Notes: generated by a model from the letters alone, not told the origin. Numbered from the stretch's first letter, positions 1 to 20,054 are shown. The stretch is 20,054 nt of DNA from Nanobdellota archaeon (GCA_038046385.1 JBBSWH010000018.1:1-20054), one strand, 5' to 3'. A program made the numbers and translations.

Positions 1-17
1 CGTTGCTTTTACCTAAA

Positions 18-53: not shown

Positions 54-64
54 TATAGACCATT

Positions 65-952: not shown

Positions 953-981
953 ACTATTGATAATACTGTCCAATAGTAACC

Positions 982-989
982 TTTAAATA
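982..989 (+). promoter_or_regulatory. Archaeal TATA box of purA (probably leaderless)
   Basis: TTTAAATA ending 23 nt before ATG 1012; the same spacing recurs at several genes in the window. Confidence 0.6.
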
Positions 990-990
990 A

Positions 991-2250
<1,260 letters not shown>

Positions 2251-2302
2251 ACTGGGGATACACTTATTTTTTATTGATCATATAATTTAAAACAGATTAA
2301 AG

Positions 2303-2339
2303 TATAACATAGTTATATTTTTTTAGGAATCTTTAAATA
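2303..2339 (+). promoter_or_regulatory. Palindrome (possible operator) and TATA box upstream of the RelE-like gene
   Basis: TATAAC-ATA-GTTATA at 2303-2317; TTTAAATA at 2332-2339, about 23 nt before ATG 2363. Confidence 0.45.
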
Positions 2340-2362
2340 AAGTAAACTCAATAATTCTTAAA

Positions 2363-2680
2363 ATGTACAAAGTTATTGGAACAGATACTTATCTCAAAGA
2401 AATCAAAAAATGGCCTAAACCTGATTTTGAAGCGGCAAACAGGCTTCCAAAACAGCTTGCAGAAAACCCGCTTACCGGAAAGCCCTTAAGTTATACCTTT
2501 CTAAGAGAGAAAAAGATACGGGAAAAGAGAATATACTATCTTGTTTATGAAGATTTGGAAATGGTTTTGCTTGTAGCTGTAAGCGGCAAAAAGGACCAGC
2601 AGGCAACTATAGACCATATAAAAGAAAATTTGAAAGAATACAGAAAAGTTGCAGAAGATGTTTCTAAGCAAGCCTTTTGA
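2363..2680 (+). CDS. RelE/ParE-superfamily toxin
   Basis: 105 aa, basic; L.ENP..GKPL....LREKKI...RIYY.V pattern of RelE-fold toxins. Confidence 0.75.
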   Translation: MYKVIGTDTYLKEIKKWPKPDFEAANRLPKQLAENPLTGKPLSYTFLREKKIREKRIYYLVYEDLEMVLLVAVSGKKDQQATIDHIKENLKEYRKVAEDVSKQAF

Positions 2681-2798
2681 ATCTGCCCTGCTTTAAGTCT
2701 TCTAAACTAGCGGAAAACTGTCTTATCAAGTCAAAATCAAGCTCTTCCAGCTTCTTAAGTCGCTGATACTCTTTTTTTGATATTGTGATTGTTTCCAT
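2664..2798 (-). CDS. Small putative antitoxin (44 aa, not in ORF track)
   Basis: My translation: METITISKKEYQRLKKLEELDFDLIRQFSASLEDLKQGRFKRLA. Resembles small archaeal antitoxins (..SLEDLK.GR..). TATA-like TTTATATA lies about 22 nt upstream on the minus strand. Confidence 0.7.
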   Translation of the reverse strand: METITISKKEYQRLKKLEELDFDLIRQFSASLEDLKQGRFKRLA

Positions 2799-2840
2799 TA
2801 TACTGCTTAATTGGGCTTCTTATATATAAAAATTGCTGTT

Positions 2841-3824
2841 TTAAACAATCTTATAAGTTCCAGGCAGCATGAATACTTTTTCTGTCTTGACCGCTACTCC
2901 TTTAAGGTTCATCATAGCTTCTGAAGAAATCTGGGCTTTTCCGATTGCAACAAGCTCATTTTTTAATGACATGATTGCGACATTATCATCTTTCAGTATT
3001 TTATCGTTAAGCTTGCTTATGCCGGGAACTTTCAAATCGACACCGTGGCACATGCTTTCAATCGTTGTGTCAAATACCCATATTTTTGGGAGATGATTAA
3101 CGGCATTTTCCATTGGCTGGATTACTTTTCTTATCAATTTGTCATTGTTTTCATTTTTCCAGTAATGGTATGCATCTGTCAGTTCCTGCATTGTGCATAA
3201 AGTCGATTCTTCAAATGGGCCTGCTTTTGTACGCCGCAACTCGGCCATGTGGGCGCCGCAGTCTAATCTTAACCCAATGTCATGGATAAGTTTTCTTATG
3301 TAAGTTCCTGCTTCTGTTCCTGTTTTAAACAAAACATCCTGCCCGTCAATCTCGAGAATGTCAAGATAATAAATGCTTCTTGTTCTTAACTGCCTTTTTA
3401 CAGAGCTTTTTATCGGAGGCAATTGCCTTATCTTTCCGAGGAATTCATTTCTTATTGTTTCTCTTAATGTTTTTTCTTCAATTTCCTTATGAAGATGCAT
3501 TATCGCAACATATTCTTTTCCCGCTGTCAGAAGATATTCAACAACTCTTGTCGCTCTTTGGAGTGCAACCGGCAAAACGCCTGTAACTGCCGGATCAAGT
3601 GTTCCTGAATGCCCGCTTTTTTCTATGTTTAGAATTTTTTGAACATAATCTGAAATTTGATGGGACGTTGGGCCTTTTGGCTTGTCTATGTTTACGATGC
3701 CATACTGTATCAATTCTTCTGTTTTTCTTTCGTTTGGATTGCAGCCGTACTTCTCTTCGGTTTCAGCTTCTTTTCTTACGAGAATACTTCGCTTTACTTG
3801 TTCAAACGGCAATAAATTATACAT
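2841..3824 (-). CDS. cbf5: H/ACA RNA-guided pseudouridine synthase Cbf5 (TruB family)
   Basis: IDKPKGPTSHQ, GHSGTLDPAVTGVL, GTYIRKL, ELRRT and a C-terminal PUA domain. Confidence 0.96.
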   Translation of the reverse strand: MYNLLPFEQVKRSILVRKEAETEEKYGCNPNERKTEELIQYGIVNIDKPKGPTSHQISDYVQKILNIEKSGHSGTLDPAVTGVLPVALQRATRVVEYLLTAGKEYVAIMHLHKEIEEKTLRETIRNEFLGKIRQLPPIKSSVKRQLRTRSIYYLDILEIDGQDVLFKTGTEAGTYIRKLIHDIGLRLDCGAHMAELRRTKAGPFEESTLCTMQELTDAYHYWKNENNDKLIRKVIQPMENAVNHLPKIWVFDTTIESMCHGVDLKVPGISKLNDKILKDDNVAIMSLKNELVAIGKAQISSEAMMNLKGVAVKTEKVFMLPGTYKIV

Positions 3825-3861
3825 AATACGAGAATAGATTATGGTTTAATAAATGTATTTG

Positions 3862-4788
3862 TTAGCTTTTTTGGTGCAATTCCAGCATTGCATTAAGGCC
3901 GCCTTGAATTGCTCTTTCTATAGCAGAATCATAATCAGTTAAGAAAGTTCCAGCTGGCCTGTTGGCAACTATTACGCATACTGTTCCGCTTCTGTATCCC
4001 ATCTGAGCCGTCAGGTGGAAGATGAGGCTTGATTCCATTTCAAAATTTACAACCCTATGACCGTCCACTTCTAATGTTGCAAGATGCTCTTGCAGTTTGG
4101 GAATAGTAATTTCTAGCCCGGGAATTTCCCTTCCTTGATTTCCAAAAAACCCAGACGCAGTTGTCGTTATGCCTGTAACATACCCTTCTCCAATGCCATT
4201 TTTGAGCGCCTCAACAACTTCTGGAGAAGATCTTGAAGCATAAGGGTATATTTTTCCCTTGAATCTTCTGCCATCCGGAGTTGCATCTGTTATCAGCCTA
4301 TATGCTTTCTCCTCAATTCTCAATACGGTGCTGTCAGGCACCGGTGCATTATAAAATAATCCTGTGTTATCCAGGCCCAATCCATAAGTGCTTATGGCCA
4401 ATGTTCCGGGCTCAACAGCTCTTTGAATACCACCTGAAGTTCCTATTCTTATGACTGTCAACGGCTTTGCTCCTTCTTTCTTGATTCTTGCTTCAAGATC
4501 TATTTCATTGACTCCGTATGCCTCAACTAATGTAATCTCATTGTTGTCTGTTCCAATTCCGGTCCCGATGACTGTAACAGGCATTCCCCTGTAAGTTCCG
4601 GTTCTGGTCATATATTCTCTATTGTTTACCTTATCCTCAACAGAATCAAAATGATCTGCAACTTTGTCTGCCCTGTCAGGATCTCCGACTAAAAAAATAT
4701 TTCTTGCAAGCTGGCTAGCATCCAATCTAAGGTGGTAAACTTTGCCGTCAACAATTACCAATTCCGAATCTTTTATTGGTTCTACCAT
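3862..4788 (-). CDS. udp: Uridine/nucleoside phosphorylase (PNP/UDP family)
   Basis: YHL, VGDPDRA, REY, GTGIG, IRIGTSGG and NFEMESS motifs. Confidence 0.85.
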   Translation of the reverse strand: MVEPIKDSELVIVDGKVYHLRLDASQLARNIFLVGDPDRADKVADHFDSVEDKVNNREYMTRTGTYRGMPVTVIGTGIGTDNNEITLVEAYGVNEIDLEARIKKEGAKPLTVIRIGTSGGIQRAVEPGTLAISTYGLGLDNTGLFYNAPVPDSTVLRIEEKAYRLITDATPDGRRFKGKIYPYASRSSPEVVEALKNGIGEGYVTGITTTASGFFGNQGREIPGLEITIPKLQEHLATLEVDGHRVVNFEMESSLIFHLTAQMGYRSGTVCVIVANRPAGTFLTDYDSAIERAIQGGLNAMLELHQKS

Positions 4789-4837
4789 CTTGCCTACAAT
4801 CTAATAATATCACAGAACTCTTTTTTTGAATGTAAAC

Positions 4838-5362
4838 TCAAGCGCTCTTAGGAGCAACGTTATGGACAATGTTCTCCTTTGCAGGCTTTGTCATCTTTGT
4901 AGCATGAACTTTTGGATGCTCTTTCTTCAATTCTTTAATTTCTTCCTTTTCTATCTTCTTTGCTTCTGTCGCCTTTTCTTCTTTTGCTTCCTTTACTTCA
5001 GCTTCAAGCTTTTCTTCTTTAGTGTCTGCCTTTGTTTCCTTCTTTGAAGATTTTTTTTCATCAACTTTAGGAACATCTATTTTAGCGCCGAACAATTCAG
5101 CAACAACTTTGCCTTTGTCGTCTTTTGTTACTGTTACTTTAATGTGATGCGGAGGATTTTTCATTCCATGCTCCCACAATTTCATGTTCAAATGCCTTCC
5201 AAGGTAAACATCTTCCGATTTCATGTGCTTTGTTAGGAATTCCCGTACTGCTCTTACAGCTTTCTTTGCTTTTCTGTAAGGAGGAACTTTCAAAGTCTTG
5301 CTTCTAAGCGGGATTATATAGGTTCTTTCCAATACTTGCTTTGATTCTTCTTTCTTTGCCAT
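4838..5362 (-). CDS. rpl31e: 50S ribosomal protein L31e with long Lys/Glu-rich C-terminal extension
   Basis: LERTYIIPLR...RKAKKAVRAVREFLTKHMK...LNMKLWEHG..NPP; follows rpl39e. Confidence 0.95.
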   Translation of the reverse strand: MAKKEESKQVLERTYIIPLRSKTLKVPPYRKAKKAVRAVREFLTKHMKSEDVYLGRHLNMKLWEHGMKNPPHHIKVTVTKDDKGKVVAELFGAKIDVPKVDEKKSSKKETKADTKEEKLEAEVKEAKEEKATEAKKIEKEEIKELKKEHPKVHATKMTKPAKENIVHNVAPKSA

Positions 5363-5364
5363 GT

Positions 5365-5538
5365 TTAAGCCTTCGTCTTTGTCCTTCTCCAGCTTCTCTT
5401 CTTTTTAGTGTGACGTCCTGGGTGGACTTTTCTTGATTTGCCGTATATCTTTGGAACTGTCCAAAAAGGAGCCCATCTGGTTTGCTTTCTAAGCTTAGCC
5501 AGCCTTTTCTTCCTGCTTGGATGTTTGTATCTTGCCAT
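5365..5538 (-). CDS. rpl39e: 50S ribosomal protein L39e (57 aa, not in ORF track)
   Basis: My translation: MARYKHPSRKKRLAKLRKQTRWAPFWTVPKIYGKSRKVHPGRHTKKKRSWRRTKTKA; canonical position before rpl31e. Confidence 0.93.
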   Translation of the reverse strand: MARYKHPSRKKRLAKLRKQTRWAPFWTVPKIYGKSRKVHPGRHTKKKRSWRRTKTKA

Positions 5539-5681
5539 TTTGTTTTTTTGAATTTGATTTTATGTTTGTTATTAATTTTTTGAGTTAATGTTATCCGTTA
5601 ATGAGTTTGTTTTATTTGTTTTTTCCGTTGCTTCGCAACAATATTTTGGCTCGCCACATTGCTCGCCTATTTATTGTATCG

Positions 5682-6071
5682 CTAAACTCTGCTGATTTTG
5701 AATTCTTTCTTTTTAGGTTCCATCTGCTCAAGCAGTTTCTTGAGCATTGCGTCGTCAACTTTGCCTTTTATCTGGCCTTTTTGCATTGCCTGCAAAAGCA
5801 CCAAAAGCAACTGGACAGCTTTTTCCTGATGGGCTGTTTTAAGGTTTCCGTACCTTGCCAATGCTTCTTTTGTCAAAACCCGCTTGACAACTTCTTCGAT
5901 TTGCGCAATCTGCTGCTGCATCTGCGCCTGCTCGTTTGACTGATTCTGCAGCTTTTCCTGCTGCATACTCATCATCTCGCTAAAAAATCCCTCGGATTTT
6001 TGGCGCCCAGAAACACTTTGTGTTTCTCGGGCTTCGAGTTTTCTTTTTTTAATCTCTTCAAGCGTCGGCAT
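5682..6071 (-). CDS. PDCD5/TFAR19-like DNA-binding protein
   Basis: LEEIKKRKLE...VLTKEALARYGNLK...GQIKGKVDDAMLKKLL...EFKISR; conserved position after rps19e. Confidence 0.9.
   Translation of the reverse strand: MPTLEEIKKRKLEARETQSVSGRQKSEGFFSEMMSMQQEKLQNQSNEQAQMQQQIAQIEEVVKRVLTKEALARYGNLKTAHQEKAVQLLLVLLQAMQKGQIKGKVDDAMLKKLLEQMEPKKKEFKISRV
5976..6038. repeat. Double-hairpin palindromic element inside the PDCD5 coding sequence
   Basis: CGCTAAAAAATCC-CTC-GGATTTTTGGCG and GCCCAGAAACAC-TTT-GTGTTTCTCGGGC, bracketed by CTCG/CGAG. Confidence 0.6.
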
Positions 6072-6528
6072 TTGCCTTCACTTCTTTCGGCTTCTGCGAT
6101 GCAGTTCCGTTTATTTTTGAAGCGATTTTGTCTAAAAATGATTTTCCTTTTGGAGTTATGATTCTTCCTTTGTGAACCCCTTTGTCTTCATACCTTACAA
6201 GACCTGCTTTGTCAAGCTGCTGCAAACATTTTCTTAAAATGCTGCCAGAGCCGTCATAGTGATGTTCTTTCTTGACTCCCCTATTCTTCTTTCCGCCGTA
6301 TTTTACCCTTAATTTTGAAACGCCGATTGGACCCATCCTGTAAACTGTTCTTAGCACAGAAGCTGTTCTCATGTACCACCAATCATTGCTCATTGGAGGC
6401 CTTTCCTTGTGCGCGCCTGTCTTTACGAAAGCAGCCCATGTTGGAGGCTTTACTTCCGGCACTTTTTTCAGCTCTTGAGCTGCTCTTTCTATAAGCTCCT
6501 GCGGATCAACATCATACATGCTTGTCAT
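6058..6528 (-). CDS. rps19e: 30S ribosomal protein S19e
   Basis: PTWAAFVKTGAHKERPP..DWWYMRTASVLR..GPIGVSKLR..YGG..GSGSILRKCLQQL..GRIITPKGKSFLD. Confidence 0.97.
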   Translation of the reverse strand: MTSMYDVDPQELIERAAQELKKVPEVKPPTWAAFVKTGAHKERPPMSNDWWYMRTASVLRTVYRMGPIGVSKLRVKYGGKKNRGVKKEHHYDGSGSILRKCLQQLDKAGLVRYEDKGVHKGRIITPKGKSFLDKIASKINGTASQKPKEVKANADA

Positions 6529-6560
6529 TTTTTTAGTTTTAAATTTTTATTTTGTTTTCT

Positions 6561-6655
6561 TTGCAACGACCCGCCTATTGATTATAATTAATCAATAACG
6601 AATCTTGTATTTGCACACCTTGCGGTGTAAGAGTGGCTAAGATTACTTAGCAACA
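6561..6655 (-). promoter_or_regulatory. Structured 5' leader (or small ncRNA) upstream of rps19e
   Basis: Three minus-strand hairpins (6636-6651; 6614-6629 with a GCAA loop; 6568-6604 with G-U pairs) downstream of TATA-like TTTTTAAA (6677-6684). Confidence 0.5.
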
Positions 6656-6694
6656 TAGAAATGGAATATCTGACGGTTTAAAAAGGTTGTTGTT

Positions 6695-7222
6695 TTATAT
6701 CGGCTGATGCGTTAAGAATCCCCATGGCACTTTAGCAGGGTCTATTATTTCAGGCTCTACTCCTTCAATGTGCGGAATTCCCATAGTTCTGGGGTCTACG
6801 CCATTCTGTTCATAGCAGATTACCCTGGCAAGTTCTCCAATAACTTTATCAGTATAAAATGTTGGGGTAAAAACTGAAGTTGAATGAGAACTTGAACTAT
6901 GCATGCCGTTTAAATTTTTAGTGTTTACATACCCTGGTAAAGATACCACATAGCCGGAATCTTTGTCTCCTGCACTGCCGACATAGCCGGCTACAAAAGT
7001 TGCGACAGCCATGTTAGTGTCATTTAATACAACCACTGCTATGTTTCCCGGCTTTGAAGCTTGAACAGGCTCAGATCCAAGAATCCTGCTTACTTCTGCA
7101 ATAGGTATTCCGCTCATAAAACCAAAGAACCCGTTATTTAATAAAAACCTGATGTTATTATAGTAACAAAATTGTAATGCAACTGTTTCCATTTTGAACG
7201 GCACATGCAAATATACAAACAT
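6695..7222 (-). CDS. Hypothetical protein (true start probably ATG 7117)
   Basis: The ORF looks protein-like from MSGIPIAEV onward; the first 35 codons run through AT-rich intergenic-like DNA. Confidence 0.6.
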   Translation of the reverse strand: MFVYLHVPFKMETVALQFCYYNNIRFLLNNGFFGFMSGIPIAEVSRILGSEPVQASKPGNIAVVVLNDTNMAVATFVAGYVGSAGDKDSGYVVSLPGYVNTKNLNGMHSSSSHSTSVFTPTFYTDKVIGELARVICYEQNGVDPRTMGIPHIEGVEPEIIDPAKVPWGFLTHQPI

Positions 7223-7269
7223 ATTTATAATAAATTAGTAATTATCAGAATATCTATCGGGGTGAAAAA

Positions 7270-7536
7270 ATGGCATTAAACGCTTTAGGACATGATATCA
7301 TGCACATATTGATTGCGGCATTGGCCGGTATATTGTTTATCGTTTCTTTACTGGCTTATATTAGGACAAAAAGAACTAAGTTTATGTACATCTGCGGGGC
7401 TTTTTTGGTGTTTTCCATCAAGGAAACAATACTCGCAATTAACATAATATCTTTTGGAACTGACCCGATGATGATGCTTACTCATTTTTTTGACTTGGTA
7501 ATCCTTGCTCTTTTTGCTTTTGGCATATTCAAATGA
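7270..7536 (+). CDS. Small three-TM membrane protein
   Basis: 88 aa with three hydrophobic segments; GGGGTGA RBS; ATGA overlap with the downstream regulator. Confidence 0.8.
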   Translation: MALNALGHDIMHILIAALAGILFIVSLLAYIRTKRTKFMYICGAFLVFSIKETILAINIISFGTDPMMMLTHFFDLVILALFAFGIFK

Positions 7537-8069
7537 TTCAAGATTATTTTAAACCAGGAAAAGGGGATTTGCTGCTGGATGCCAGAAAAAGAATATATCT
7601 CACTATCGAGAAATTTCCAGGCCTGCATTTTCGGGAATTGCAGAGGATGAATAACCTGGGAATTGGAAACCTGGACTATCATTTGAACTATCTTGAAAAA
7701 AATAACCTCATCAAAGCAGAGAAATCAAAAGCCAACAAGCGATTCTACCCCCTGGGTTTAAACGATCGCGAACGCAACATCTTAGGCATATTAAGGCAAA
7801 GGAATTTCAGAAAAATAATATTAAAGCTGCTGGAAGAAAAAAATATCACTCATAAGGGAATTGCAGATTATTTAAAGATTTCTCCTTCTTCCGCAACATG
7901 GTACCTTAACCAATTATTAAGCAGAAACATCTTAATTATTTTTAAAAAAGAAAAGCGAAAGCAATATCAATTAAAAAATAAGGACGAGATAATAAAAGTT
8001 CTTATAGCCTATAGGGAAAGTTTTGTTGATAACCTGGTGGACAGTTTTGTTGAAGCATTTGAAAAATAG
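7533..8069 (+). CDS. Double winged-HTH transcriptional regulator
   Basis: RKRIY..IEKFPGLHFRELQR...GNLDYHLNYLEK plus a second HTH (THKGIADYLKISPSSATWYLNQL). Confidence 0.88.
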   Translation: MIQDYFKPGKGDLLLDARKRIYLTIEKFPGLHFRELQRMNNLGIGNLDYHLNYLEKNNLIKAEKSKANKRFYPLGLNDRERNILGILRQRNFRKIILKLLEEKNITHKGIADYLKISPSSATWYLNQLLSRNILIIFKKEKRKQYQLKNKDEIIKVLIAYRESFVDNLVDSFVEAFEK

Positions 8070-8161
8070 CAGTTCTATAATTGTTCCAACACCTATATAA
8101 GGTCAAAGTTTGCAATTCTCGCAATACATATTACAAAAAAATTAAGAGAGGGAAATAAAAA

Positions 8162-9244
8162 ATGAAAGAGCCTACACTAGATAAAAAAGAGCAGCCAGAC
8201 AAAGAAAGTTATACACATTTTAATCACGAACACAACAGAAAAATTGCATTTAGGCCAGAACACCATAAATTGAAAAAAGCAAGAACATGGCAGATTGTGT
8301 CTGCTGTTTTGGGAATTTTATTGATTGTTTCTTTTTTTACAGGAAACTTTTTTGGGCCAAAGGCATCAGACTCAAACAAAAATATAGTGGCTGATAATAC
8401 TATTAAATATATCAACCAGAACCTTCTGCAGGGAAAAGGGACTGCAACATTAACGAATGTTGAAGAGTCAAATGGGTTATATTATCTTAAACTGAAAATT
8501 AATGGCCAGGAGATGAATTCTTATGTAACTCCAGACGGCAAATTGCTGTTCCCTCAGGCAATAGACTTGACAACAACCCCTCAAATAGAAAGTACACCGC
8601 AAGCTCCATCCAATATTCCTAAATCCAGCAAACCAAAAGTGGAATTGTTTATCATGTCCCATTGCCCTTACGGCACGCAAATCGAAAAAGGGATTATCCC
8701 TGTTGTAAAAGAATTAGGGAACAAAATCGATTTTGAAGTCAAGTTCGTAAACTACGCCATGCACGGAGAGAAAGAGCTGGATGAACAACTGCTGCAATAC
8801 TGCATTCAAAAGGATTATAAAAATAAATATATGGCTTATCTTGCCAAATTCCTTGAAAATGGAGATTCTAAAGAAGCTTTAACTGCTGCAGGGCTAACTG
8901 AAACTGCTTTGGCTAACTGCATTGCTGAAACTGACAAAACCTACAGGGTGACTGAATTATTTAATGATCCGCAAAAGACCATGTGGAGCGGCAGATTTCC
9001 TCCATTCAAAGTTTATGACGCAGAAAACAAAAAATACGGCGTGCAAGGATCACCAACACTTGTAATCAATGGAGAGCAAGCAGACACCGGAAGAGACGCG
9101 CAAAGTCTTCTTGCAGCAATCTGCAGCGCATTTGATGATAAGCCTGCAGAATGCAAAACAGACCTTTCTTCAGCCGGCAACCCGGCCCCGGGATTTGGGT
9201 ATGATACGCAGGGCGGTTCAGCAACAGCCGGATGCGGGGCTTGA
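8162..9244 (+). CDS. Membrane-anchored thioredoxin-fold (DsbA/DsbC-like) protein
   Basis: N-terminal TM helix, YVTPDGKLLF, VELFIMSHCPYG and YGVQGSPTLVING (cis-Pro loop). Confidence 0.8.
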   Translation: MKEPTLDKKEQPDKESYTHFNHEHNRKIAFRPEHHKLKKARTWQIVSAVLGILLIVSFFTGNFFGPKASDSNKNIVADNTIKYINQNLLQGKGTATLTNVEESNGLYYLKLKINGQEMNSYVTPDGKLLFPQAIDLTTTPQIESTPQAPSNIPKSSKPKVELFIMSHCPYGTQIEKGIIPVVKELGNKIDFEVKFVNYAMHGEKELDEQLLQYCIQKDYKNKYMAYLAKFLENGDSKEALTAAGLTETALANCIAETDKTYRVTELFNDPQKTMWSGRFPPFKVYDAENKKYGVQGSPTLVINGEQADTGRDAQSLLAAICSAFDDKPAECKTDLSSAGNPAPGFGYDTQGGSATAGCGA

Positions 9245-9399
9245 AGTTAACAACGGAATTTAACACAGTTTTTTCCATCGAAAATTTCCCCTCGAAGTTT
9301 GAGGCAACCCACAAACTTCAGAGATGGAGAATTTTTCAGAGCTGGCAAAAATTTGGGAGAGCAAGTGCAACGCAGCGAACCGCCTAATTCCTGTTAAGT
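9245..9399 (-). repeat. attC-like site 1 (terminal site of the array)
   Basis: + strand AGTTAAC-AACGGAATT ... ATTTGGGAGAG (9351) ... TAATTCCT-GTTAAGT. Arms pair with a 2-nt bulge; internal hairpins; begins right after stop codon 9244. Confidence 0.75.
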
Positions 9400-9548
9400 T
9401 CGTTTCCCATACGAAGTGTGGGAAACCTGCGTCCGCAGAGTAATTTTTAGTTGCTCGTGTTCTATCAAATGAGCGAAGCGATGCATCAAGAACAAGAATC
9501 AAGGGGGACATTTCGTAGTAGTTGTTAGTGATGGATTGTTCTGCTTAA

Positions 9549-10803: not shown

Positions 10804-11037
10804 TTAATTTTCATTTTTTTGAGTATCACTATAGACTATTACACCAATAGCTCCCGCAGTCCACGAAAGAGAATTTTCAATTAGATTCATAACTGCTTCT
10901 GCTTCTTGTAAATGGGTTCTAGCAAATGTTTGATTTTTAGTTTTATATTGGATTGGTACTATTAAAATTCCTATTGCTTTTGGATTTATTTTTTGACCGG
11001 CAGCAATTTTAAGAAAATCGTGAACAACTCGTATAAC
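10804..11037 (-). pseudogene. 5'-truncated gene, possibly the C-terminal half of a BglII/BstYI-like restriction endonuclease
   Basis: 77 open codons VIRVVHDFLKIAAGQKINPKAIGILIVPIQ...AIGVIVYSDTQKNEN* beginning at the GTT of site 2, with no upstream start. Family call is by motif resemblance (D.LK...IGILIVP) only. Confidence 0.65.
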
Positions 11038-11118
11038 AATGGACTTTGGTGAAGTCGCCGAAGGCGATTTGGGTGGAGAAACCCGTAAGGTTTCAGAGTC
11101 GGTTAAGCCCTGTTAAAT
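11031..11118 (-). repeat. attC-like site 2
   Basis: GTATAAC-AATGGACTT..GAAGT-CGCCGAAGGCG-ATTTGGGTGGA-GAAACCCGTAAGGTTTC..TAAGCCCT-GTTAAAT. Confidence 0.8.
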
Positions 11119-11986
11119 GCCCCGACGACCGAAGGGAACCTTACTGTTCACCGGAACAAGGATTTGAGAGATTTATCGTTCTCTTTAGATAAATTTTGAA
11201 GGACCTGAAATATTAGTTCACAATTCGAAGCCCATATGCCTAATAAATGAAGTGAGATCCCCGCGTCCTAGAAGAAGATTCGGCATCTTGATGCTAGTAA
11301 CGTATGCTTCTCTCTCCTTATTGTTATCTTCTCTAACGTAGACTTTGATGAGCATACTGCAGGGGTATTCCTCTTCAGGATTTTTTGAGTCAACCCACGC
11401 ATCACTTGCTTTTTGGATGGCATCTGGGACGTAGTATCCGCTCCCAGAATCATAGAATGAAACCAGCATAGCCCCTTCAGGTGTAGCACTTATGAAATAA
11501 TCATCATGGGAATGCTTCCAGCGGCGACGCAGATCTCCAGAAGCAACTTCCCCGCGCGGATTAATTATTGGAGCCAACAGCCCGGGATAGAATCTTAGTG
11601 AGATGTCATAAGGACTCTCATCTCCTTCATCGGAAAGACTCTCTCTTTTCAAGTACTTAACCTGGATAAACTCTTGAATTTGGATGTTATGAGGAGGATT
11701 TCCACTGTAAAAATGATTCACTCCTTGCGGAAACAGAAGCCAGTACTCGGCGCTTGAGTTATGAAGAACAGCGCCTAATCCAGGCATAGTTTTTAGCGGC
11801 AATTGCTGATGGAGACTTAAGAATTCTTCAATCCCGAGCGCATCAAAACCACCTTCCCTAATTCTTTCCAGAGTCGCATTAAAAGCCTGTGCGATATTAT
11901 TTTCCAAAGGCATACTACTGGGAAGTAATCCTTAGTTTATAACGGTTTTGAAACATCCACCGGATATTGACACGCGAGGTATTTAA
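11037..11986 (-). mobile_element. Gene cassette B (single unknown gene)
   Basis: Ends GTTAAATGCCCCG (11112-11124) and CGAGGTATTTAAC (11975-11987) are complementary with one G-T and one mismatch. Confidence 0.7.
11218..11913 (-). CDS. Hypothetical cassette protein
   Basis: 231-aa ORF filling cassette B; TTATAAA TATA-like box about 23 nt upstream. Confidence 0.8.
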   Translation of the reverse strand: MPLENNIAQAFNATLERIREGGFDALGIEEFLSLHQQLPLKTMPGLGAVLHNSSAEYWLLFPQGVNHFYSGNPPHNIQIQEFIQVKYLKRESLSDEGDESPYDISLRFYPGLLAPIINPRGEVASGDLRRRWKHSHDDYFISATPEGAMLVSFYDSGSGYYVPDAIQKASDAWVDSKNPEEEYPCSMLIKVYVREDNNKEREAYVTSIKMPNLLLGRGDLTSFIRHMGFEL

Positions 11987-12095
11987 CATCGCGGTTTTCT
12001 GAAGTTTTTTGGCGAGGCATCCCACGCCAAAAAATTTGGGAGAGCTACGAACGAGCTTGGCGAGCGAGAAGTGAGCCAGTTAACCGCTGTTAAAT
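11981..12095 (-). repeat. attC-like site 3
   Basis: ATTTAAC-ATCGCGGTT..GAAGT-TTTTTGGCG..CGCCAAAAA-ATTTGGGAGAG..TAACCGCT-GTTAAAT; GCGGTT/AACCGC pair perfectly. Confidence 0.82.
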
Positions 12096-12260
12096 GCCTT
12101 TGCCCTGCGGAGTGGGGCAAAGTTTCGTTCGAAAAGTTCGAAAACCCGCCGTACGTAAATCCCCGTTGTCGCCGCAGCCCCCTCTTAGACTACCACTGGA
12201 CATCTCTGGGCAAGGTTTATAAAGCAGTTCTATATAATATATGAAAATAAAGGAAGGGAT

Positions 12261-16327: not shown

Positions 16328-16466
16328 ATTTAACATCGGCGTTTGGCGAAGTTTCTAGGGCGTGCTTTAAAGCAAGGCTAGGGAGTTGCGAAGCAAAAAT
16401 TTGGGTGGAGTGGAGTTCGGCTACGAAGTGGACGAACGGAACGTAACCTCATAATTCCTGTTAGCC
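16328..16466 (-). repeat. attC-like site 4
   Basis: ATTTAAC-ATCGGCGTTTGGCGAAGT...ATTTGGGTGGAG (16399)...TAATTCCT-GTTAGCC. Confidence 0.82.
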
Positions 16467-16558
16467 GACCGAGCCTACGAAGTGGGCGAGGCTTGAGTTT
16501 TCTTACTGCCGAGAATCAGATAGGTGCCGTAGTTTTTACTTACTTTAATATCAATAAC

Positions 16559-17513
16559 TGCGAAGCAGAGTATTGTTTAGAGAGAGCTTTTTTTATCGAA
16601 ATCTTGATTGTTATTTATGTATTCGTTTGAATAATTTTTCAATATTAACCATGACATTATCAATATGTTTTTTAAGTAGTTTAACTATTAGGTATCTTCC
16701 AATAGCAATTATTACAATTGTAAAAAATACGTATGACCATTTAAATGAATAACTAAAAGCCACTCCTGGTTTATAATAATTTAATGTATTTTGAGACATG
16801 GATTCATCTAGAAGAGATTTATCATAAGATAGAATTAGTTGCCCATCAAGGTAATCTTCATTTGCTGGCTTTGATATAATGGGATTATAACTTCTTTTAA
16901 ATAAAAAACATTCTGGCAAAATTAGATTTATTTTCCTTATTCTGTTATCTAGCATGATGGTTTCGAAGGTAAATTGCTTTTTACCATCAATTTTTTTTAC
17001 ATAGTCTTTAACTTCATATGCAGTAATTAGATAAAACTCATTGAAAGGGGGAATTTTAGTATTAGAAATGTCCAATATATAATAATTGAAAGCATCATCA
17101 TTGTAGTAATAAAATTGATTTGAACGATCAATTTGGTTATTGTCTATGGATTTAATTAACTGTGAATTCAATATTTTATTTACACCAAAGGTATAATAGT
17201 TTTCTTTCAAGTCTAGTATAGAATTATTATAATTAGGTATATGGAAATGTCTTGTTACAGTTATATCGTTAGAGAAGCAATGTAATTTAAGTTCTATGTC
17301 AGTAAATGATTTGATGTCGTTAATTCCTGCAGATGAAAAACTAGATAATAAAAGGATGAATATGATTAAACTGATGATTGTTTTCATTATATAATGGATT
17401 GTTTAGTTATATATAAAACATTTGATACTCTATTAACTGTTCTGAACTAATTAATTTATTAAAGGAAAATAATCTTTAATAAATCATTGCGAAGCAGACT
17501 AGTGTTTAGAGAG
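16559..17513. repeat. 26-bp imperfect direct repeats flanking the 258-aa gene
   Basis: TGCGAAGCAGAGTATTGTTTAGAGAG (16559-16584) vs TGCGAAGCAGACTAGTGTTTAGAGAG (17488-17513), 24/26 identical. Confidence 0.8.
16611..17387 (-). CDS. Exported protein with signal peptide and C-terminal TM anchor, function unknown
   Basis: MKTIISLIIFILLLSSFSSA signal-like N-terminus; YVFFTIVIIAIGRYLIV TM followed by a basic tail. Confidence 0.8.
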   Translation of the reverse strand: MKTIISLIIFILLLSSFSSAGINDIKSFTDIELKLHCFSNDITVTRHFHIPNYNNSILDLKENYYTFGVNKILNSQLIKSIDNNQIDRSNQFYYYNDDAFNYYILDISNTKIPPFNEFYLITAYEVKDYVKKIDGKKQFTFETIMLDNRIRKINLILPECFLFKRSYNPIISKPANEDYLDGQLILSYDKSLLDESMSQNTLNYYKPGVAFSYSFKWSYVFFTIVIIAIGRYLIVKLLKKHIDNVMVNIEKLFKRIHK

Positions 17514-17687
17514 GGGGCTGTTTTTGGTTCTTTTTCTGAAAAAGAAAATTTATGCTAGGACATTAGGGAGTGATTCAAACGTCCTAACTCACTAAGTAGT
17601 AGATTGGTAATCTACCGAGTTTGACAACTTCTCTACCCCAGTATATTAGATATGAGAATAAATAATTAATTTGAAATATTTTAACAT

Positions 17688-18176
17688 TTAAAATTTTTGT
17701 TCAAATAGCTCATCTAGTAAGTCATATATTGATTTAAAGTCCTTAAACTTTTTAGGCTTTTTGATGCACTTCTGTAAAGAACTCTTGTCTAGGTTTCTAA
17801 TTTCTTCAATTAGTTGCCTACTTAAATTAGGTTTTTTATCTCTATACACTTTTCTTGTTTTATGACAATCCAAGAAACCTTCAAAATTTTCTTCACTAAA
17901 ATAGATATAATTTTTATGTTCTTTAATTTCATCAGTTATCTTCTTTTGATTCTTGAAAGTGTCTGAATCGTAAACATAAACTATTATTACAGATAAGCCT
18001 TTTAAAAATTTTGATTTTCTTATGGCATTCACTATATCATTTGTTTTAGAATTGGGCTTTAATACATAATTATTTGAGATTATTTTGTTACCCTTTAATG
18101 CTTCAAAATAGTTTTTTTCAGAATCCCCTTCACAATATATGTGAACTATTTTTTTACTCATTCTCTTTATATACAT
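17688..18176 (-). CDS. RloB/AbiLii-like (TOPRIM-like) protein
   Basis: IYCEGDSEKNYF, YVYDSD and SEENFE motifs; overlaps the ATPase gene (start probably ATG 18161). Confidence 0.8.
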   Translation of the reverse strand: MYIKRMSKKIVHIYCEGDSEKNYFEALKGNKIISNNYVLKPNSKTNDIVNAIRKSKFLKGLSVIIVYVYDSDTFKNQKKITDEIKEHKNYIYFSEENFEGFLDCHKTRKVYRDKKPNLSRQLIEEIRNLDKSSLQKCIKKPKKFKDFKSIYDLLDELFEQKF

Positions 18177-19383
18177 GGGGAAATCCTCCTAAAACACCTT
18201 CTCTGTAATACTCCCCATAATCTTTGTTGATTTTAGGATTATTCTTAACGACATTATGAAGATTAATTATTTTGCTAACTGAATCATCTTTTTCAATTAT
18301 ATTAATTTGATCACTCCTTAAATAGTTTAATACTTCTGGTTGGTGTGTCGTAAACAAAAGTTGAGACCCGTTATCTTTTTTTGAAAAACTATTTAGGATA
18401 AATTCTACTATTTCGATATTATAAGATGTTTCAATTTCATCATAAAGAATTATGGAGTCTTTTGATAATTTTAATAAGTTATAAAATATTAAAATAAACT
18501 TTTGTGTTCCACTAGATTCCGCGTTGAAATTAATCTTAATAGTTTTATTTTTATGTTTGTGGATTAAATCTAAATCCATAATTTCTTTCTCACTTATTTT
18601 TTGGTTCATGGTTCCTTTATCATCTGTTTGGATAAGTTCAATTGTCTTAATCTTTCTTTTAACTAATTCTAAATCACTAATCGAAAAATCAGCAAATGAT
18701 AAATTATCCAAAAGGTTGCCTTTCAACTTTTTATCTTTTAATAATTCAAAGTCTGGTGGCATATTGAACAAAGTATTAATTACAATTATTTTAGAAAAAA
18801 AATCATATATGGGTTTCAGTGTTTTTGAGTTTAATTGTACTGCTCTTGAAAGCATTAAAGTTTGAGGTATGACACTATGTGTTAATAGTTTTAATTCCTT
18901 CTCAAATTTTTTATTAGTAAATTGAAATCTTTTGTTAAGATTATCTTCATCCCTTGTAAAAATCTCTTTTGGTTTTTGTGTTTCATAAACTATTGCAAAT
19001 TCTTTTACTATTTTTTTATTTGTGTATGAAAACCCATAAACATATTTTTTATTTTCAGATATAAATGTTAGTTCAAATTCAGTAGGTTTTCCTTGTTCTG
19101 TAATAAAAGGAGAATACCTAATATTAGTGTCTACATTATGTTTTTGAGAATTTAAAACCATCTCTTTCATAAAGTTCAAACCTGAAAGTAAAGATGTTTT
19201 TCCTGAACCATTAACACCTACAAGTCCGGAAGTCTTTAAAATATCTAAACCATTTATTTTAGTTATAAACTTTGTTCCAGTTTGTTCTTTAGATTTTCTT
19301 TCAAAGCTTAAAACATCCCCTTCTTTGTATGAGTTATAGTTTTTTATTTTAAATTCAATTATCATATTCTTAGGAATGTACAT
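18154..19383 (-). CDS. RloA/AbiLi-like AAA_21 (ABC-type) ATPase; true start probably ATG 19365
   Basis: IEFKIKNYNSYK, Walker A GVNGSGKT, ESSGTQK, Walker B ILYDEIE, QLLFTTH, YREGVLGGFP. TTTAAATA at 19388-19395 is 23 nt from ATG 19365. Confidence 0.9.
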   Translation of the reverse strand: MYIPKNMIIEFKIKNYNSYKEGDVLSFERKSKEQTGTKFITKINGLDILKTSGLVGVNGSGKTSLLSGLNFMKEMVLNSQKHNVDTNIRYSPFITEQGKPTEFELTFISENKKYVYGFSYTNKKIVKEFAIVYETQKPKEIFTRDEDNLNKRFQFTNKKFEKELKLLTHSVIPQTLMLSRAVQLNSKTLKPIYDFFSKIIVINTLFNMPPDFELLKDKKLKGNLLDNLSFADFSISDLELVKRKIKTIELIQTDDKGTMNQKISEKEIMDLDLIHKHKNKTIKINFNAESSGTQKFILIFYNLLKLSKDSIILYDEIETSYNIEIVEFILNSFSKKDNGSQLLFTTHQPEVLNYLRSDQINIIEKDDSVSKIINLHNVVKNNPKINKDYGEYYREGVLGGFPHVYKENE

Positions 19384-19578
19384 CTAGTATTTAAATGTTT
19401 GCATTTTATTCATTATTTTCCTGTTTTCTTTTAAAAAATAATGGAAAATGAGAAAATAAGTCTTTTTTTAAACTTATTTTATTTTTAGAGCAACGAAATT
19501 GTGAGTATATATGTGCGTAGTGCCAGCCCCCTCTCAGTCTAAAGTAAGTAAAAATTTGGGTGAAGCGAAGCGTAACCG

Positions 19579-19890
19579 TTAAACTAATGTTAGAAAAATT
19601 CCTCTTACATTCTTCACTGCTTGAGTGATTAGTGCAGATATTAGAGAACTGATTGCTCCACCAATATACCCATAAATTAATGTTATAATCTGCTGTGAAA
19701 GTAAATCTGCGAAAGCTGAGTCTCCAGAAGCAGCAACTGTTACCGTCTTAAGTGAAAACATAATCAAAGGAACTGCACCAGCTACACCTGCAACCGTTCT
19801 AAGATCTTTAACTATCTTATTTGAAAAAGCAAAACCGAGTCCAGCACTACCTAATATATCAATAATTAATACAAATACATCAATTTCCAT
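19579..19890 (-). CDS. Small three-TM membrane protein
   Basis: 103 aa hydrophobic; stop codon lies inside GTTTAAC. Confidence 0.75.
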   Translation of the reverse strand: MEIDVFVLIIDILGSAGLGFAFSNKIVKDLRTVAGVAGAVPLIMFSLKTVTVAASGDSAFADLLSQQIITLIYGYIGGAISSLISALITQAVKNVRGIFLTLV

Positions 19891-19996
19891 ATATAACAGG
19901 AAATAGTTACACTTTTTATTTTTTTCTACAGTTTAACGAAGGCACCTATCTAAAGGATTCGAGGTTTACCGACGGAGGAGGCAGTAAGAAAATTTT

Positions 19997-20054
19997 GGCT
20001 AACATCGGAATTTGGCGAAGTCGTTTAAGTTCCGCAGAACATTAAATGATTTGG
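19997..20054 (-). repeat. attC-like site 5 (cut by window end)
   Basis: GGCTAAC-ATCGGAATTTGGCGAAGT-CGTTTAAGTTCCGCAGAACATTAAATG-ATTTGG. Confidence 0.8.

Follow-up and report, generated by a model that had tools for sequence, protein, structure and literature searches.

The nested inverted repeats that frame cassette D of an archaeal gene array are probably the left and right sides of one long, branched stem of a recombination site belonging to an integron-like cassette. The window that we analyzed, 20,054 nucleotides in length, is an entire contig from the 1.28-Mb genome of a small Woesearchaeota-like groundwater archaeon, and an integron-like array of Y-shaped attC-like sites begins at its position 9245. 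Within the window, model R1 detects 5 sites, each of them on the + strand; it detects none on any other contig of this genome, and it recovers 57 sites in the first 21 sources; the 5' motif of the sites was found in 68 of 401 genomes of the order (one of them the unpublished G336). The layout had been described in a first-pass annotation of this DNA as one without any known counterpart. This claim has to be withdrawn, given that the layout is that of an integron-like array, whose cassettes normally pair R' with the R'' of the site that belongs to them, as the outermost pair does here.

Sites located between cassettes take the form xxxTAAC-ATC-L''-AAGT-[hairpin A]-ATTTGGG-[hairpin B]-L'-T-GTTAxxx. 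In the site alignment, the L boxes form an 11-bp, nearly invariant, and fully paired helix in which no extrahelical bases were seen; a spacer-like 3/1 bubble (3 nt versus 1 nt) and a variable apical part complete the picture, and the two strands are made asymmetric by the GGG, a G.T pair, and mini-hairpins. Site 2 forms a single long hairpin when folded with DNA parameters, and the L' box of site 3 (AATTCC) is a better match for the L'' box of site 4 than for that of site 3 itself. Each right-hand box has a variable part that corresponds to the left-hand box of the following site, so that a cassette bears both halves of its own R box. The 7-mers of R' and R'' are perfectly complementary in 34 of 45 cassettes, with GTTAGCC/GGCTAAC as the pair of cassette D, though a comparison of sequences cannot tell which box is cut. 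All coordinates are compiled in Table 1.

Table 1. Array sites, stem arms, and genes of cassette D, with positions counted from the first nucleotide of the window.
Feature	Position	Strand	Remarks
attC-like site 0	9245-9399	+	model R1, 56.1 bits; first of the array, immediately following a thioredoxin-like core gene
attC-like site 1	11031-11118	+	model R1, 66.5 bits
attC-like site 2	11981-12095	+	model R1, 68.7 bits
attC-like site 3	16328-16466	+	model R1, 55.5 bits; left border of cassette D
box R' GTTAGCC	16460-16466	+	final 7 nt of site 3
H1 branch	16467-16497	+	co-fold: local hairpin with ACGAAGT mini-hairpin loop, bulging from the long stem
stem a, left arm	16498-16510	+	AGT + 13 nt; predicted first outer helix, family-wide
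stem b, left arm	16518-16528	+	specific to the D-type frame
stem c, left arm	16533-16547	+	preceded by CGTAGT, which resembles the canonical-site junction CGAAGT
module M, copy 1	16550-16596	+	GCGAAGC mini-hairpin + TTTAGAGAG + T run; degenerate d block
258-aa ORF	16611-17387	-	between the two M copies
module M, copy 2	17479-17525	+	12 other genomes have copies with 90-100% identity
stem d, left arm	17509-17520	+	within module M copy 2
degenerate tRNA-like gene copy	17557-17650	-	mean column identity of 86% with a tRNA called in G006
AbiLii / RloB-like, 162 aa	17688-18176	-	Pfam RloB 1e-07; PADLOC AbiLii 1.2e-11
AbiLi / AAA_21 ATPase, 409 aa	18154-19383	-	Pfam AAA_21 2e-26; PADLOC AbiLi 2.1e-61
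degenerate inner site	19454-19595	+	model R1, 11.7 bits, E 0.31, filters off
stem d, right arm	19524-19535	+	dispersed module CAGCCCCCTCT; 3 genome copies, all in the window's array
stem c, right arm	19540-19554	+	continues into the inner site's junction motif AAATTTGGG
9/9 stem, left arm	19577-19585	+	L'-box motif of the inner site
103-aa ORF	19579-19890	-	weak DUF2975 match; in the 'slot' loop of the inner site
9/9 stem, right arm	19930-19938	+	L''-box-like motif AGTTTAACGAAGG versus canonical AATTTAACGAAGT
stem b, right arm	19941-19951	+	specific to the D-type frame
stem a, right arm	19980-19992	+	13 nt + ATT, immediately upstream of R''+2
attC-like site 4	19997-20054	+	model R1, 33.5 bits; 3' end lost at the contig end
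box R'' GGCTAAC	first 7 nt of site 4 (from 19997)	+	complements 16460-16466

The six inverted pairs claimed for cassette D are exact reverse complements at their coordinates and mutually nested. By length alone, the stem pairs are unexceptional: In 200 dinucleotide shuffles of 16460-20003, exact inverted repeats of at least 11, 12, 13, and 15 nt arise on average 8.4, 2.65, 0.85, and 0.10 times compared to 15, 4, 2, and 1 observed, and 40 further exact inverted repeats of 10-12 nt are spread across the genes of the same interval, so that the 9/9, 11/11, and 12/12 pairs are meaningless in isolation. By position, the stem pairs are far from chance. As a measure, we scored the gapped complementarity alignment of the 120-nt flanks of each cassette with the R boxes excluded. 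The score of cassette D (40.1) is reached by 0.15% of 2000 random pairs of genome segments separated by 3.4 kb and, among 1980 non-cognate pairs of cassette ends, by 0.35%; that of cassette C (47.8) is reached by 0% and 0.15%, respectively. Cassettes A and B of the array score no better than chance, with fractions of 0.38 and 0.65 in the genome controls. Over all cassettes, flank complementarity without the R boxes places 30 of 45 in the top 1% of the 1980 non-cognate pairs. Co-folding of 16460-16600 with 19890-20003 as DNA gains -29.0 kcal/mol over the monomers versus -7.6 +/- 1.8 for 100 shuffles, and co-folding of 16460-16600 with 19500-19600 gains -14.7 versus -8.0 +/- 2.0 for shuffles. 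The shuffle check named in the first-pass annotation is answered in two parts. Shuffled sequence does yield comparable counts of exact 10-13-nt inverted repeats, among them 11-13-mers, but position, collinearity, co-fold energy, the comparison of cognate with non-cognate ends, and conservation in other genomes go beyond chance, and it is highly improbable that the pairs are mere coincidental matches in AT-rich DNA. Chance is already contradicted for stems a, b, c, and d, while the 9/9 pair alone is rescued only by the comparison with relatives.

Across all 1.28 Mb of the genome, block a (16498/19980), block b (16518/19941), block c (16533/19540), and block d (17509/19524) are each found as this one pair only, compared to 4 occurrences of CGTTAAACT and 33 of GTTAGCC. 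Among the inner pairs, d/d' is a dispersed module and the 9/9 stem an L-box motif of the degenerate inner site.

In ~70% of cassettes, the inverted ends share one geometry in which R'+2 pairs with R''+2, a hairpin branch of 27-71 nt follows, and AGT plus 13 nt then pair with 13 nt plus ATT before R''. With at least 13 of 16 matching positions required, this first outer helix is present in 31 of 44 cassettes (20 genomes) compared to 20 of 1892 non-cognate pairs, and it is missing in the other 13, including A and B of the window's array. The architecture hence recurs in other cassettes as had been anticipated, and the complementarity is collinear. There are 40 distinct 16-mers among the 44 cassettes that nevertheless stay complementary at constant helix geometry, which amounts to massive covariation. 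In 30 of the 31 helix-bearing cassettes, AGT is paired with ATT, so that the + strand carries a G.T. Mismatches in imperfect stems are mostly transversions (58 of 86), and those of the G.T type number 18 on the + strand versus 10 on the - strand, an excess that is not significant. Stem a of cassette D corresponds to this predicted first outer helix of the family.

Stems b, c, and d, which make the stem longer, are components of a D-type frame with the R boxes GTTAGCC/GGCTAAC. The first-pass annotation had noted that the blocks differ from those of cassette C; they are, however, not private to cassette D. At least 28 other genomes have the frame, with 82-98% conservation, around defense cargo that varies. 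Seven fetched loci contain both frame arms in the same order around different cargo, and the annotated cargo consists of restriction-modification, AbiL, and methylase genes. Arms a-c of cassette D are 92-98% identical in fetched loci from other families, a level that exceeds the need of pairing alone and points to protein recognition or recent transfer, and that leaves hardly any variation with which these three stems could be tested for covariation. The only changes observed, single G to A exchanges in stem a of L196 and L201, are uncompensated. By direct reading of the sequences, compensatory variants occur in the a-b interval, with GAAAATC/GATTTTC in L198, L199, and L200, GAAGAAT/ATTCTTC in L197, and GAATC/GATTC in the window, L158, and L196. 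They also occur in d/d', where the window has GAGAGGGGGCTG/CAGCCCCCTCTC, related frames have GGACGAGAGA/TCTCTCGTCC, and the AbiL cassette of G006 is surrounded by GAGGGGGAGTCC/GGACTCTCCCTC (11 of 12).

The conservation of the frame arms around changing cargo, the uncompensated changes in stem a, and the unequal spacings between blocks in the two arms of cassette D, which are reminiscent of transposon ends, could also be accommodated if the arms worked as duplex DNA, be it as inverted protein-binding sites (accessory or arm-type sites for the recombinase), terminal inverted repeats of a frame resembling a transposon, or homology arms for cargo swapping by homologous recombination, and no pairing were needed. 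We regard this as unlikely. The annotated cargo includes no transposase, direct reading of the sequence shows no target duplication at the a/a' ends, and the arms always adjoin sites with which they have R boxes in common. Outer helices that differ in sequence from cassette to cassette yet remain complementary are not expected of binding sites, and the strand bias of the mini-hairpins described below would be without meaning in duplex DNA.

Inside the frame, the two copies of module M (direct repeat D7, 86% over 35 nt) enclose the 258-aa gene, for which a family search gave no match, and relatives have the module once. The tRNA-like gene at 17557-17650, not called by tRNA calling in the window, goes with the AbiL pair, which in G006 stands alone as a cassette and has an inverted repeat to itself. 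Preservation within the degenerate inner site is good in the 3' half (19548-19595), which comprises AAATTTGGG, a hairpin, CCGTTAAAC, TAAT, and GTTAGAA; a motif scan finds 3 mismatches in 17, and a homologous block is found in relatives. The slot of this site, occupied by the 103-aa gene in the window, measures only ~40-55 nt in seven relatives with the same closing stem. Relatives that lack individual loops at the stem bases, as the first-pass annotation had proposed to look for, thus exist for the slot, for module M, and for the AbiL pair.

These same observations invite the reading that cassette D is a fusion of several cassettes by site decay, in which b, c, d, and the 9/9 stem are leftovers and only the R boxes and stem a matter. 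The inner site is degenerate, c' adjoins its ATTTGGG junction, the CGTAGT that joins b and c is site-like, the AbiL pair can stand alone, the 258-aa gene has a duplicated module on either side, and L196 bears a 24-nt minimal site scar. We nonetheless find such a fossil origin of the inner stems very doubtful. The entire frame including the inner site retains 76-100% identity in many families of the order, more than neutral fossils would keep, and the a-b helix and d/d' have compensatory variants.

Signs of single-strand folding fall on the + strand, the strand that had been named in advance. Among 73 sites with their 80-nt leaders, x-CGNAG-x' motifs number 158 on the site (+) strand versus 4 on the other, a density of 10.9 per kb versus 0.5 per kb in the genome, which corresponds to a ~20-fold enrichment and a 40:1 strand bias. 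GNA loops are described as extraordinarily stable as DNA and much less so as RNA, and origins of single-stranded DNA are among the places where they are found (PMC13037366; PMC3201870). The array shares with the d(GCGNAGC)/d(cGNAg) hairpins of such origins the loop motif, the C:G closing pair, and one more complementary pair, and it differs from them in that its mini-hairpins would build the scaffold of a recombination site, whereas those of origins build a priming signal (PMC13037366; PMC3201870). The bias of CGNAG motifs favors single-stranded DNA folding of the + strand, where the mini-hairpins may nucleate folding or exclude single-strand-binding protein.

It is quite unlikely that the stems act in RNA instead, where the 5' end of a cassette-spanning transcript would pair with its 3' end to allow processing or circularisation or to confer stability or insulation, in the manner of the long processing stems around archaeal rRNAs. 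Covarying helices, a conserved G.U-compatible pair on one strand, and the T runs that follow module M on the + strand would all fit such a role, but the structured strand is not consistently the mRNA strand, with cargo in antisense in 3 loci (the window, L198, and L199) and in sense in 5 (L158, L196, L197, L200, and L201). A search of the region against Rfam gave no match, no RNA run containing the region was found, and the CGNAG/GNA mini-hairpins are reported to be far stabler as DNA than as RNA (PMC13037366).

A XerA-like recombinase gene lies 3' of the site strand and co-oriented with it at 9 of 9 loci that have array and gene on one locus. In 3 more genomes, including that of the window, the gene sits at a contig end and faces outward; it is missing in five array loci with at least 5 kb of downstream sequence, and in L203 it lies on the opposite side of the array. 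The best family is archaeal XerA NF040815 (197-237 bits, cut-off 220), and the closest solved chains are XerC-like, XerA, and IntI4, the latter over the C-terminal stretch only. An assignment as IntI was rejected, given that TIGR02249 matches in two stretches only, without profile positions ~180-228, and scores 183-200 bits against a cut-off of 265. Synteny suggests a link between recombinase and sites. The sole XerA-like gene found in G261 and in G329 sits at the array, so that host XerA and array recombinase may be identical in these cases.

In the reading that we prefer, the stems would pair within a single-stranded + strand, whether this is part of the array or of an excised circle, and thereby zip the two ends of one cassette together. 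Zipping would complete a fully paired R arm beside the 11-bp L arm and the 3/1 bubble, and the completed arms would offer a dif-like duplex core to the neighboring XerA-like recombinase. As pairing would draw the two flanking sites together, a single cassette could be excised or kept as a unit, and further recombination at inner degenerate sites might add modules within the frame. The origami-like compaction of multi-kb single-stranded DNA put forward in the first-pass annotation is a conjecture. More tentatively, and with less confidence than doubt, we propose for DPANN archaea a XerA-driven integron-like system in which each cassette possesses its own "zipper" of covarying helix, hairpin branch, and one-strand mini-hairpins that closes the cassette in single-stranded DNA and builds the core for the recombinase, while the D-type frame may serve as a second-order platform whose inner site takes up defense modules as nested loops.

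In a large group of tiny groundwater archaea, array sites continue into cassette-specific helices, the arrays lie beside an ordinary-looking XerA-type recombinase, and multi-gene defense systems are housed inside a conserved nested frame. If the proposal is true, it would provide a simple physical rule for how cassette ends meet and would illustrate how integron-like gene capture could recruit a Xer-type enzyme. The rule would also offer a sequence signature with which to find such cassettes and their defense cargo in metagenomes.

Integrons are the textbook example of recombination via folded single-stranded DNA, for which a specialised integrase is needed, and the pairing of classical attC sites is not known to extend beyond the R box. 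The array shares with published integron attC arrays, both bacterial and archaeal, the tandem imperfect palindromes with outer boxes ending in AAC or starting with GTT (PMC9668308; Nivina et al. 2016, PMC5027507), an inner pair of L boxes, an unpaired spacer, and a variable apical structure (PMC5027507), one strand richer in G.T pairs and purine-rich loops (PMC5027507), and cassettes that hold the second half of their own R box (PMC9668308; PMC5027507). Defense genes have been reported as cargo of chromosomal integrons (10.1101/2024.07.02.601686) and are likewise found here. The main text of a study on archaeal integrons (Ghaly et al. 2022; PMC9668308) uses neither "stem" nor "inverted" (0 occurrences). 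Unlike integrons, the array is accompanied by a XerA-like recombinase without the IntI-specific insert, and some cassettes of its family are multi-gene frames of 3-10 kb with an inner site. Its sites further differ from integron attC in their Y shape with conserved AAGT and ATTTGGG junctions, in 11-bp L boxes that are nearly invariant and fully paired with no evident extrahelical bases, and in a cassette-specific helix with hairpin branch that extends past the R box. A transposon or MITE with terminal inverted repeats was also considered and rejected, given that no direct repeat flanks a/a', that no transposase was seen in the annotated cargo, and that blocks a-d occur once each in the genome and adjoin sites in relatives. 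Another relevant precedent is the cholera-toxin phage, whose attachment site is a forked hairpin formed by a folded single strand and used by XerCD. There as in our proposal, a Xer-type enzyme would act on a duplex core made from a folded single strand, and two arms of ~9-11 bp surround a small unpaired center. The archaeal system differs from this phage in having no phage genes and in forming long tandem arrays of exchangeable cassettes beside a dedicated XerA-like gene.

The genome that carries the array (G000) comprises 1.28 Mb on 19 contigs at 85% completeness, and the window is all of its contig C18. Core archaeal genes occupy 1-9244 (adenylosuccinate synthetase, a Cbf5-type pseudouridine synthase, and ribosomal proteins L31e and S19e), while from 9245 to the contig end the + strand bears an array of repeated, imperfectly palindromic, attC-like sites that delimit cassettes A to D (see table). 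The sites were located with R1, a covariance model built from 25 relatives' sites and 4 window sites, and an R1 search of the G000 genome revealed no further such sites elsewhere. Rfam gave nothing relevant on the window or on 17480-17720, and ARAGORN called no tRNA in the window. The region occurs in 16 public runs, all of them DNA from groundwater metagenomes with contig pieces of 200-970 nt, and these gave no usable sign of excised circles or of empty sites.

Coordinates and contents of features in the window and in related loci (L, fetched loci)
Feature	Locus	Position	Strand	Detail
attC-like site 0	window	9245-9399	+	R1
attC-like site 1	window	11031-11118	+	R1
attC-like site 2	window	11981-12095	+	R1
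attC-like site 3	window	16328-16466	+	R1
attC-like site 4	window	19997-20054	+	R1; cut by contig end
Cassette A	window			two ORFs, one with PDC-M05A candidate match
Cassette B	window			one ORF
Cassette C	window			NgoPII restriction enzyme, cytosine methylase, Vsr, HEPN protein, NsnA/GmrSD-like protein
Cassette D	window	16460-20003		258-aa ORF, AbiLii/RloB, AbiLi/AAA_21, 103-aa ORF
Stem a	window	16498-16510/19980-19992
Stem b	window	16518-16528/19941-19951
Stem c	window	16533-16547/19540-19554
Stem d	window	17509-17520/19524-19535
9/9 stem	window	19577-19585/19930-19938
Block a, b, c + start of module M	window	16495-16580		77-98% identity, 28 other genomes
Block d	window	17508-17551		80-100% identity, 12 other genomes
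Block d', c' + inner half-site	window	19503-19596		76-95% identity, about 21 other genomes
Block b', a'	window	19914-20003		71-97% identity, 12 other genomes
Frame cargo	L158, L200			type III restriction-modification
Frame cargo	L197			methylase + GHKL-type ATPase
Frame cargo	L196			EcoRI-type methylase + GmrSD-HNH
Frame cargo	L199			two methylases
XerA-like gene beside array	L158	3550-4398	-
XerA-like gene beside array	L163	7576-8370	-
XerA-like gene beside array	L197	4579-5382	-
XerA-like gene beside array	L200	2228-3025	-
XerA-like gene beside array	L173	9043-9858	+
XerA-like gene beside array	L181	7643-8461	+
XerA-like gene beside array	L169	3349-4080	+
XerA-like gene beside array	L166	5735-6551	-	match in two pieces; gene may be broken
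XerA-like gene beside array	L204	11709-11999	+

Of 401 genomes sampled within the order to which G000 belongs, 68 (the unpublished G336 among them) contain a 22-nt motif taken from the site's 5' half; a reversed control pattern matched in 6, with one match each. Aligned relatives define the canonical site as xxxTAAC-ATC-GGAATTTAACG-AAGT-(hairpin A, 11-90 nt)-ATTTGGG-(hairpin B)-CCGTTAAATTCC-T-GTTAxxx; its parts are a Y-shaped apex, an L helix of 11 bp, a 3/1 bubble and an R helix. R1 yielded 57 + type sites in the window together with 20 fetched loci; another 19 loci added 23. It was used instead of a home-made palindrome scanner, which was too strict and missed 3 of the 4 complete window sites. 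The pattern ATTTGGGWGRGN{25,52}CTGTTA was too loose: its 120 stretches in a scan of the genome collection were mostly single chance matches in unrelated bacteria, and R1 matched only L063 and two Woesearchaeota records, L005 and L075. The named records bearing the same site are Woesearchaeota assemblies.

At cassette ends, the outer 7-mer boxes R' (right end of one site) and R'' (left end of the next) are perfectly complementary in 34 of 45 cassettes, an integron signature with the crossover predicted inside the R box. The pair GTTAGCC/GGCTAAC, which the first-pass annotation took as the outermost of the nested stems that close the modules of cassette D, is this ordinary R'/R'' feature of integron-like cassettes. 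Site 3 is hybrid (16447-16466 and 19997-20011), as its inner box L' (AATTCC) mismatches its own L'' (CGGCGTT) and fits the L'' GGAATT of site 4; C and D may have been joined by something other than a clean R-box crossover, or site 3 may have been patched. In L156 (8001-8642, minus strand), a 143-nt site is present in three tandem copies, 249 nt start to start, separated by cassette units of about 120 nt including boxes that hold no ORF and in which all boxes are GTTAGAA/TTCTAAC.

Beyond the R box, cassettes with significant end complementarity share a near-constant geometry. The first 9 positions past the crossover (R'+2) pair with the cassette's last 9 nt (R''+2), the left strand then runs through an unpaired 27-71-nt branch of small hairpins (H1), and after it a stretch of "AGT" and some 13 nt finds its complement in some 13 nt ending in "ATT" immediately upstream of R''+2. 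When the 16 nt before R''+2 were compared with their best ungapped complement in the left 120 nt, at least 13 of 16 positions matched in 31 of 44 cassettes versus 20 of 1892 non-cognate pairs, and at least 14 in 28 of 44 versus 14 of 1892. Stem a of cassette D is this family-wide outer helix, and the recurrence in other cassettes that the first-pass annotation had proposed to check was found. The 16-mers of the 44 cassettes come in 40 different forms with a mean pairwise identity of 6.4/16, and AGT lies opposite ATT in 30 of 31 cassettes, which gives a G.T pair on the site strand. This pattern is large-scale covariation, with selection for the helix as a helix and a sequence specific to each cassette. 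The outer helix of cassette C, for example, is GGCGGGTTTTCGAATT/AGTTCGAAAACCCGCC, and in L198 the first helix of a related cassette with identical R boxes has co-varied to AGGCGAGAAAAATATT/AGTATTTTTCTCGCCG. Cassettes A, C and D open with a hairpin whose loop is (T)ACGAAGTG or TGCGGAGTG (9400-9460, 12098-12122 and 16467-16497), and CGCAGAG-T(A/T)ATTTT ends many leaders in relatives; leaders are assembled from a few reused modules.

All six inverted pairs proposed for cassette D are exact and mutually nested, and blocks a, b, c and d are each present once, as that pair, in the whole genome. Dinucleotide shuffles of 16460-20003 contain on average 8.4 exact inverted repeats of at least 11 nt and 0.85 of at least 13 nt, and 40 other 10-12-nt inverted matches are scattered through the genes of the real cassette. 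Pair length alone therefore proves nothing; it is the position of the pairs that does. Repeats of similar length do arise in shuffles, as the first-pass annotation had named as a possible refutation, but the end complementarity of D and C exceeds that of random and non-cognate pairs. In the 120-nt ends of D and C, R boxes excluded, complementarity is higher than in 99.85-100% of 2000 random genome pairs and higher than in 99.65-99.85% of 1980 non-cognate cassette-end pairs; the ends of A and B are at chance level in the same test; flanks were scored by gapped alignment, as ungapped local alignment is blind to bulged stems. Co-folding the left end of D as DNA with 19890-20003 gains -29 kcal/mol versus -7.6 +/- 1.8 for shuffles. 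That the pairing arose by chance is, in our judgment, extremely improbable.

The D blocks are shared beyond their cassette: in a BLAST search of 16460-20003 against the 401 genomes, the stem-bearing blocks recur across the order, and the AbiL genes gave only 69-83% matches located elsewhere. Seven fetched loci (L158 and L196-L201) show the same block order around 5.5-10 kb of differing cargo, namely site, leader, a-b-c-M-d, cargo, d'-c', inner half-site, slot, L''-like motif, b'-a' and GGCTAAC. The D frame is thus conserved with varying cargo, and cargo genes lie on either strand relative to it. With arms 92-98% identical, these loci offer almost no variation in which a, b and c could covary; stem a has two single changes, both uncompensated. 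Compensated variants lie around them: the short a-b helix is GAAAATC/GATTTTC in L198-L200 and GAAGAAT/ATTCTTC in L197, the window, L158 and L196 share GAATC/GATTC, and d/d' has three forms, each still complementary. Arms this similar could serve as duplex protein sites or as homology arms, which we consider unlikely. L196 (G250:C22) has in place of the expected full site a "minimal site" of 24 nt (GTATAAC-ATC-GGTTCC-T-GTTAGCC; minus strand, near 11160-11185, some 75 nt ahead of the left arm), which looks like a site with its entire interior deleted; within 16 kb of it there is no other site and no recombinase, and L196 may be a frozen D-type frame. Two weak joins come from metagenomes: one contig of the public run X4 (depth 2, shorter side 21 nt) links 16580, the end of the left arm, to 19541 in stem c' with 7 other letters, and may be a cargo-less D-type frame of another strain or organism, and another contig links 9395 to 16496.

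Within the frame lies a degenerate site, 19454-19595 (R1 11.7 bits, E 0.31, filters off), whose 3' half is well kept (AAATTTGGG, hairpin, CCGTTAAAC, TAAT, GTTAGAA; 3 mismatches in 17 against the canonical 3' half). The 9/9 stem joins the L' box of this site to an L''-like motif (19926-19942). Seven relatives have the same stem, 10/10 in L158, around a spacer of only about 40-55 nt; the window's loop contains the 103-aa ORF. Because c' directly abuts the ATTTGGG junction and b and c are joined by CGTAGT, resembling the CGAAGT junction, c/c' would occupy the place of a site's hairpin A with the cargo as its loop. Module M plus d is single in relatives and double in the window (16550-16596, with a degenerate d, and 17479-17525), where the two copies flank the 258-aa ORF. 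In genome G006, two canonical sites flank the AbiL pair, which forms an ordinary cassette there and is accompanied by a tRNA gene and an inverted repeat of its own. Modules in nested loops had been predicted to be missing from relatives at stem bases, and descriptively the 103-aa slot, the single M plus d and the free-standing AbiL cassette bear this out. Inner stems that are functionless fossils of earlier sites, as the degenerate site might suggest, seem quite improbable to us beside the three complementary forms of d/d'. The G006 tRNA gene (L204 5370-5455, minus strand, just downstream of AbiLii) is called by ARAGORN as tRNA-Gly with anticodon ACC and scores 38.8 bits with Rfam tRNA; a tRNA-like copy in the window (17557-17650, minus strand), not called as a tRNA, has 86% mean column identity to it, a compensatory change in the anticodon stem and a damaged T arm.

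Concerning the strand that folds, we counted x-CGNAG-x' motifs (a GNA triloop closed by C:G and one further complementary pair) in 73 distinct sites and their 80-nt leaders, 14.5 kb in total, and found 158 on the site strand versus 4 on the opposite one, a density of 10.9 per kb versus 0.5 per kb per strand genome-wide. Such mini-hairpins are described as extraordinarily stable in DNA but far less so in RNA, and as occurring at single-stranded DNA origins, with one hairpin region unbound by single-strand-binding protein (PMC13037366; PMC3201870); classical attC bottom strands are likewise described as richer in G:T pairs and purines (PMC5027507). The strand bias of the mini-hairpins, the attC parallel and the conserved G.T pair together favour folding of the + strand as single-stranded DNA. 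Stem mismatches overall comprise 18 of G.T type versus 10 of A.C type, which is not significant, and 58 transversions. The covarying helices and their G.T pair could also be read as stems acting in RNA; given hairpins of a kind much weaker as RNA, we give this reading a low probability.

No integrase gene lies within the window. G000 has two XerA-like genes, one of which opens another contig, C1 (G000:C1:176-991, + strand), with its 5' end facing outward, and in two more genomes a XerA-like gene likewise faces outward at a contig end. Nine loci, from nine other genomes, have array and XerA-like gene on the same piece; the gene follows the last site at 0.2-7 kb and, in 9/9 loci, lies 3' of it on the strand of the sites. 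Besides this synteny, one locus has the gene on the opposite side of a D-type arm, and five array loci with at least 5 kb of downstream sequence have no XerA-like gene. Array-side proteins match archaeal XerA (NF040815) with 197-237 bits (cut-off 220), and the integron-integrase model matched in two pieces only, without the IntI-specific insert. Four of them cluster at 45-60% identity with a common N-terminal deletion, and the C1 protein is nearer to its genome's second XerA-like gene (45%). The recombinase of L158 and L197 adjoins the D-type frame as its nearest cassette, with GGCTAAC followed by about 200 nt without a site and then the gene. A CACTGGACA(C)TGGACA repeat, which may be an operator or promoter element, lies upstream of array-side recombinases (G000:C1:118-140; in L197 about 150 nt before the gene start), and a single copy is found in the cassette C leader (12193-12204). 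That L197 and C1 have this repeat in common suggests that C1 continues the window's array. With the XerA-like gene as reference, the window's + strand is the counterpart of the classical bottom strand, which is described as recombined in integrons (PMC5027507).

From the array with its R-box logic, the cassette-specific outer helix with its branch and the strand-biased DNA hairpins, we propose that, once the + strand is single-stranded, both ends of one cassette would zip together. The stack would consist of the L helix (11 bp), the 3/1 bubble, the R helix (9 bp), the H1 branch and the outer helix (at least 16 bp); in D, stems b, c and d would extend it and the inner site would branch off to the side. 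The result would be a fully paired two-arm core resembling a Xer substrate. Within an array, the left site's 3' half and the right site's 5' half would stack with the cassette looped out, and in an excised circle the same stack would be capped by hairpins A and B. Zipping would link excision to the cassette's own ends and stabilise the R arm. We consider this proposal probable.

In classical attC sites, pairing is not known to extend past the R box. Integrons have already been described in Archaea, where attCs are said to fold like bacterial ones, IntIs to carry the IntI-specific domain and most arrays to have no integrase nearby (PMC9668308); the words "stem" and "inverted" have 0 occurrences in the main text of that study. 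Our literature searches on archaeal integrons and attC sites (for PMC9668308, its main text) turned up no account of such frames, of a XerA-type partner or of any helix continuing past the R box. Archaeal integron arrays as such are thus known, and what appears new here, our searches having found no description, are the helices beyond the R box, the XerA-type partner and the nested frames.
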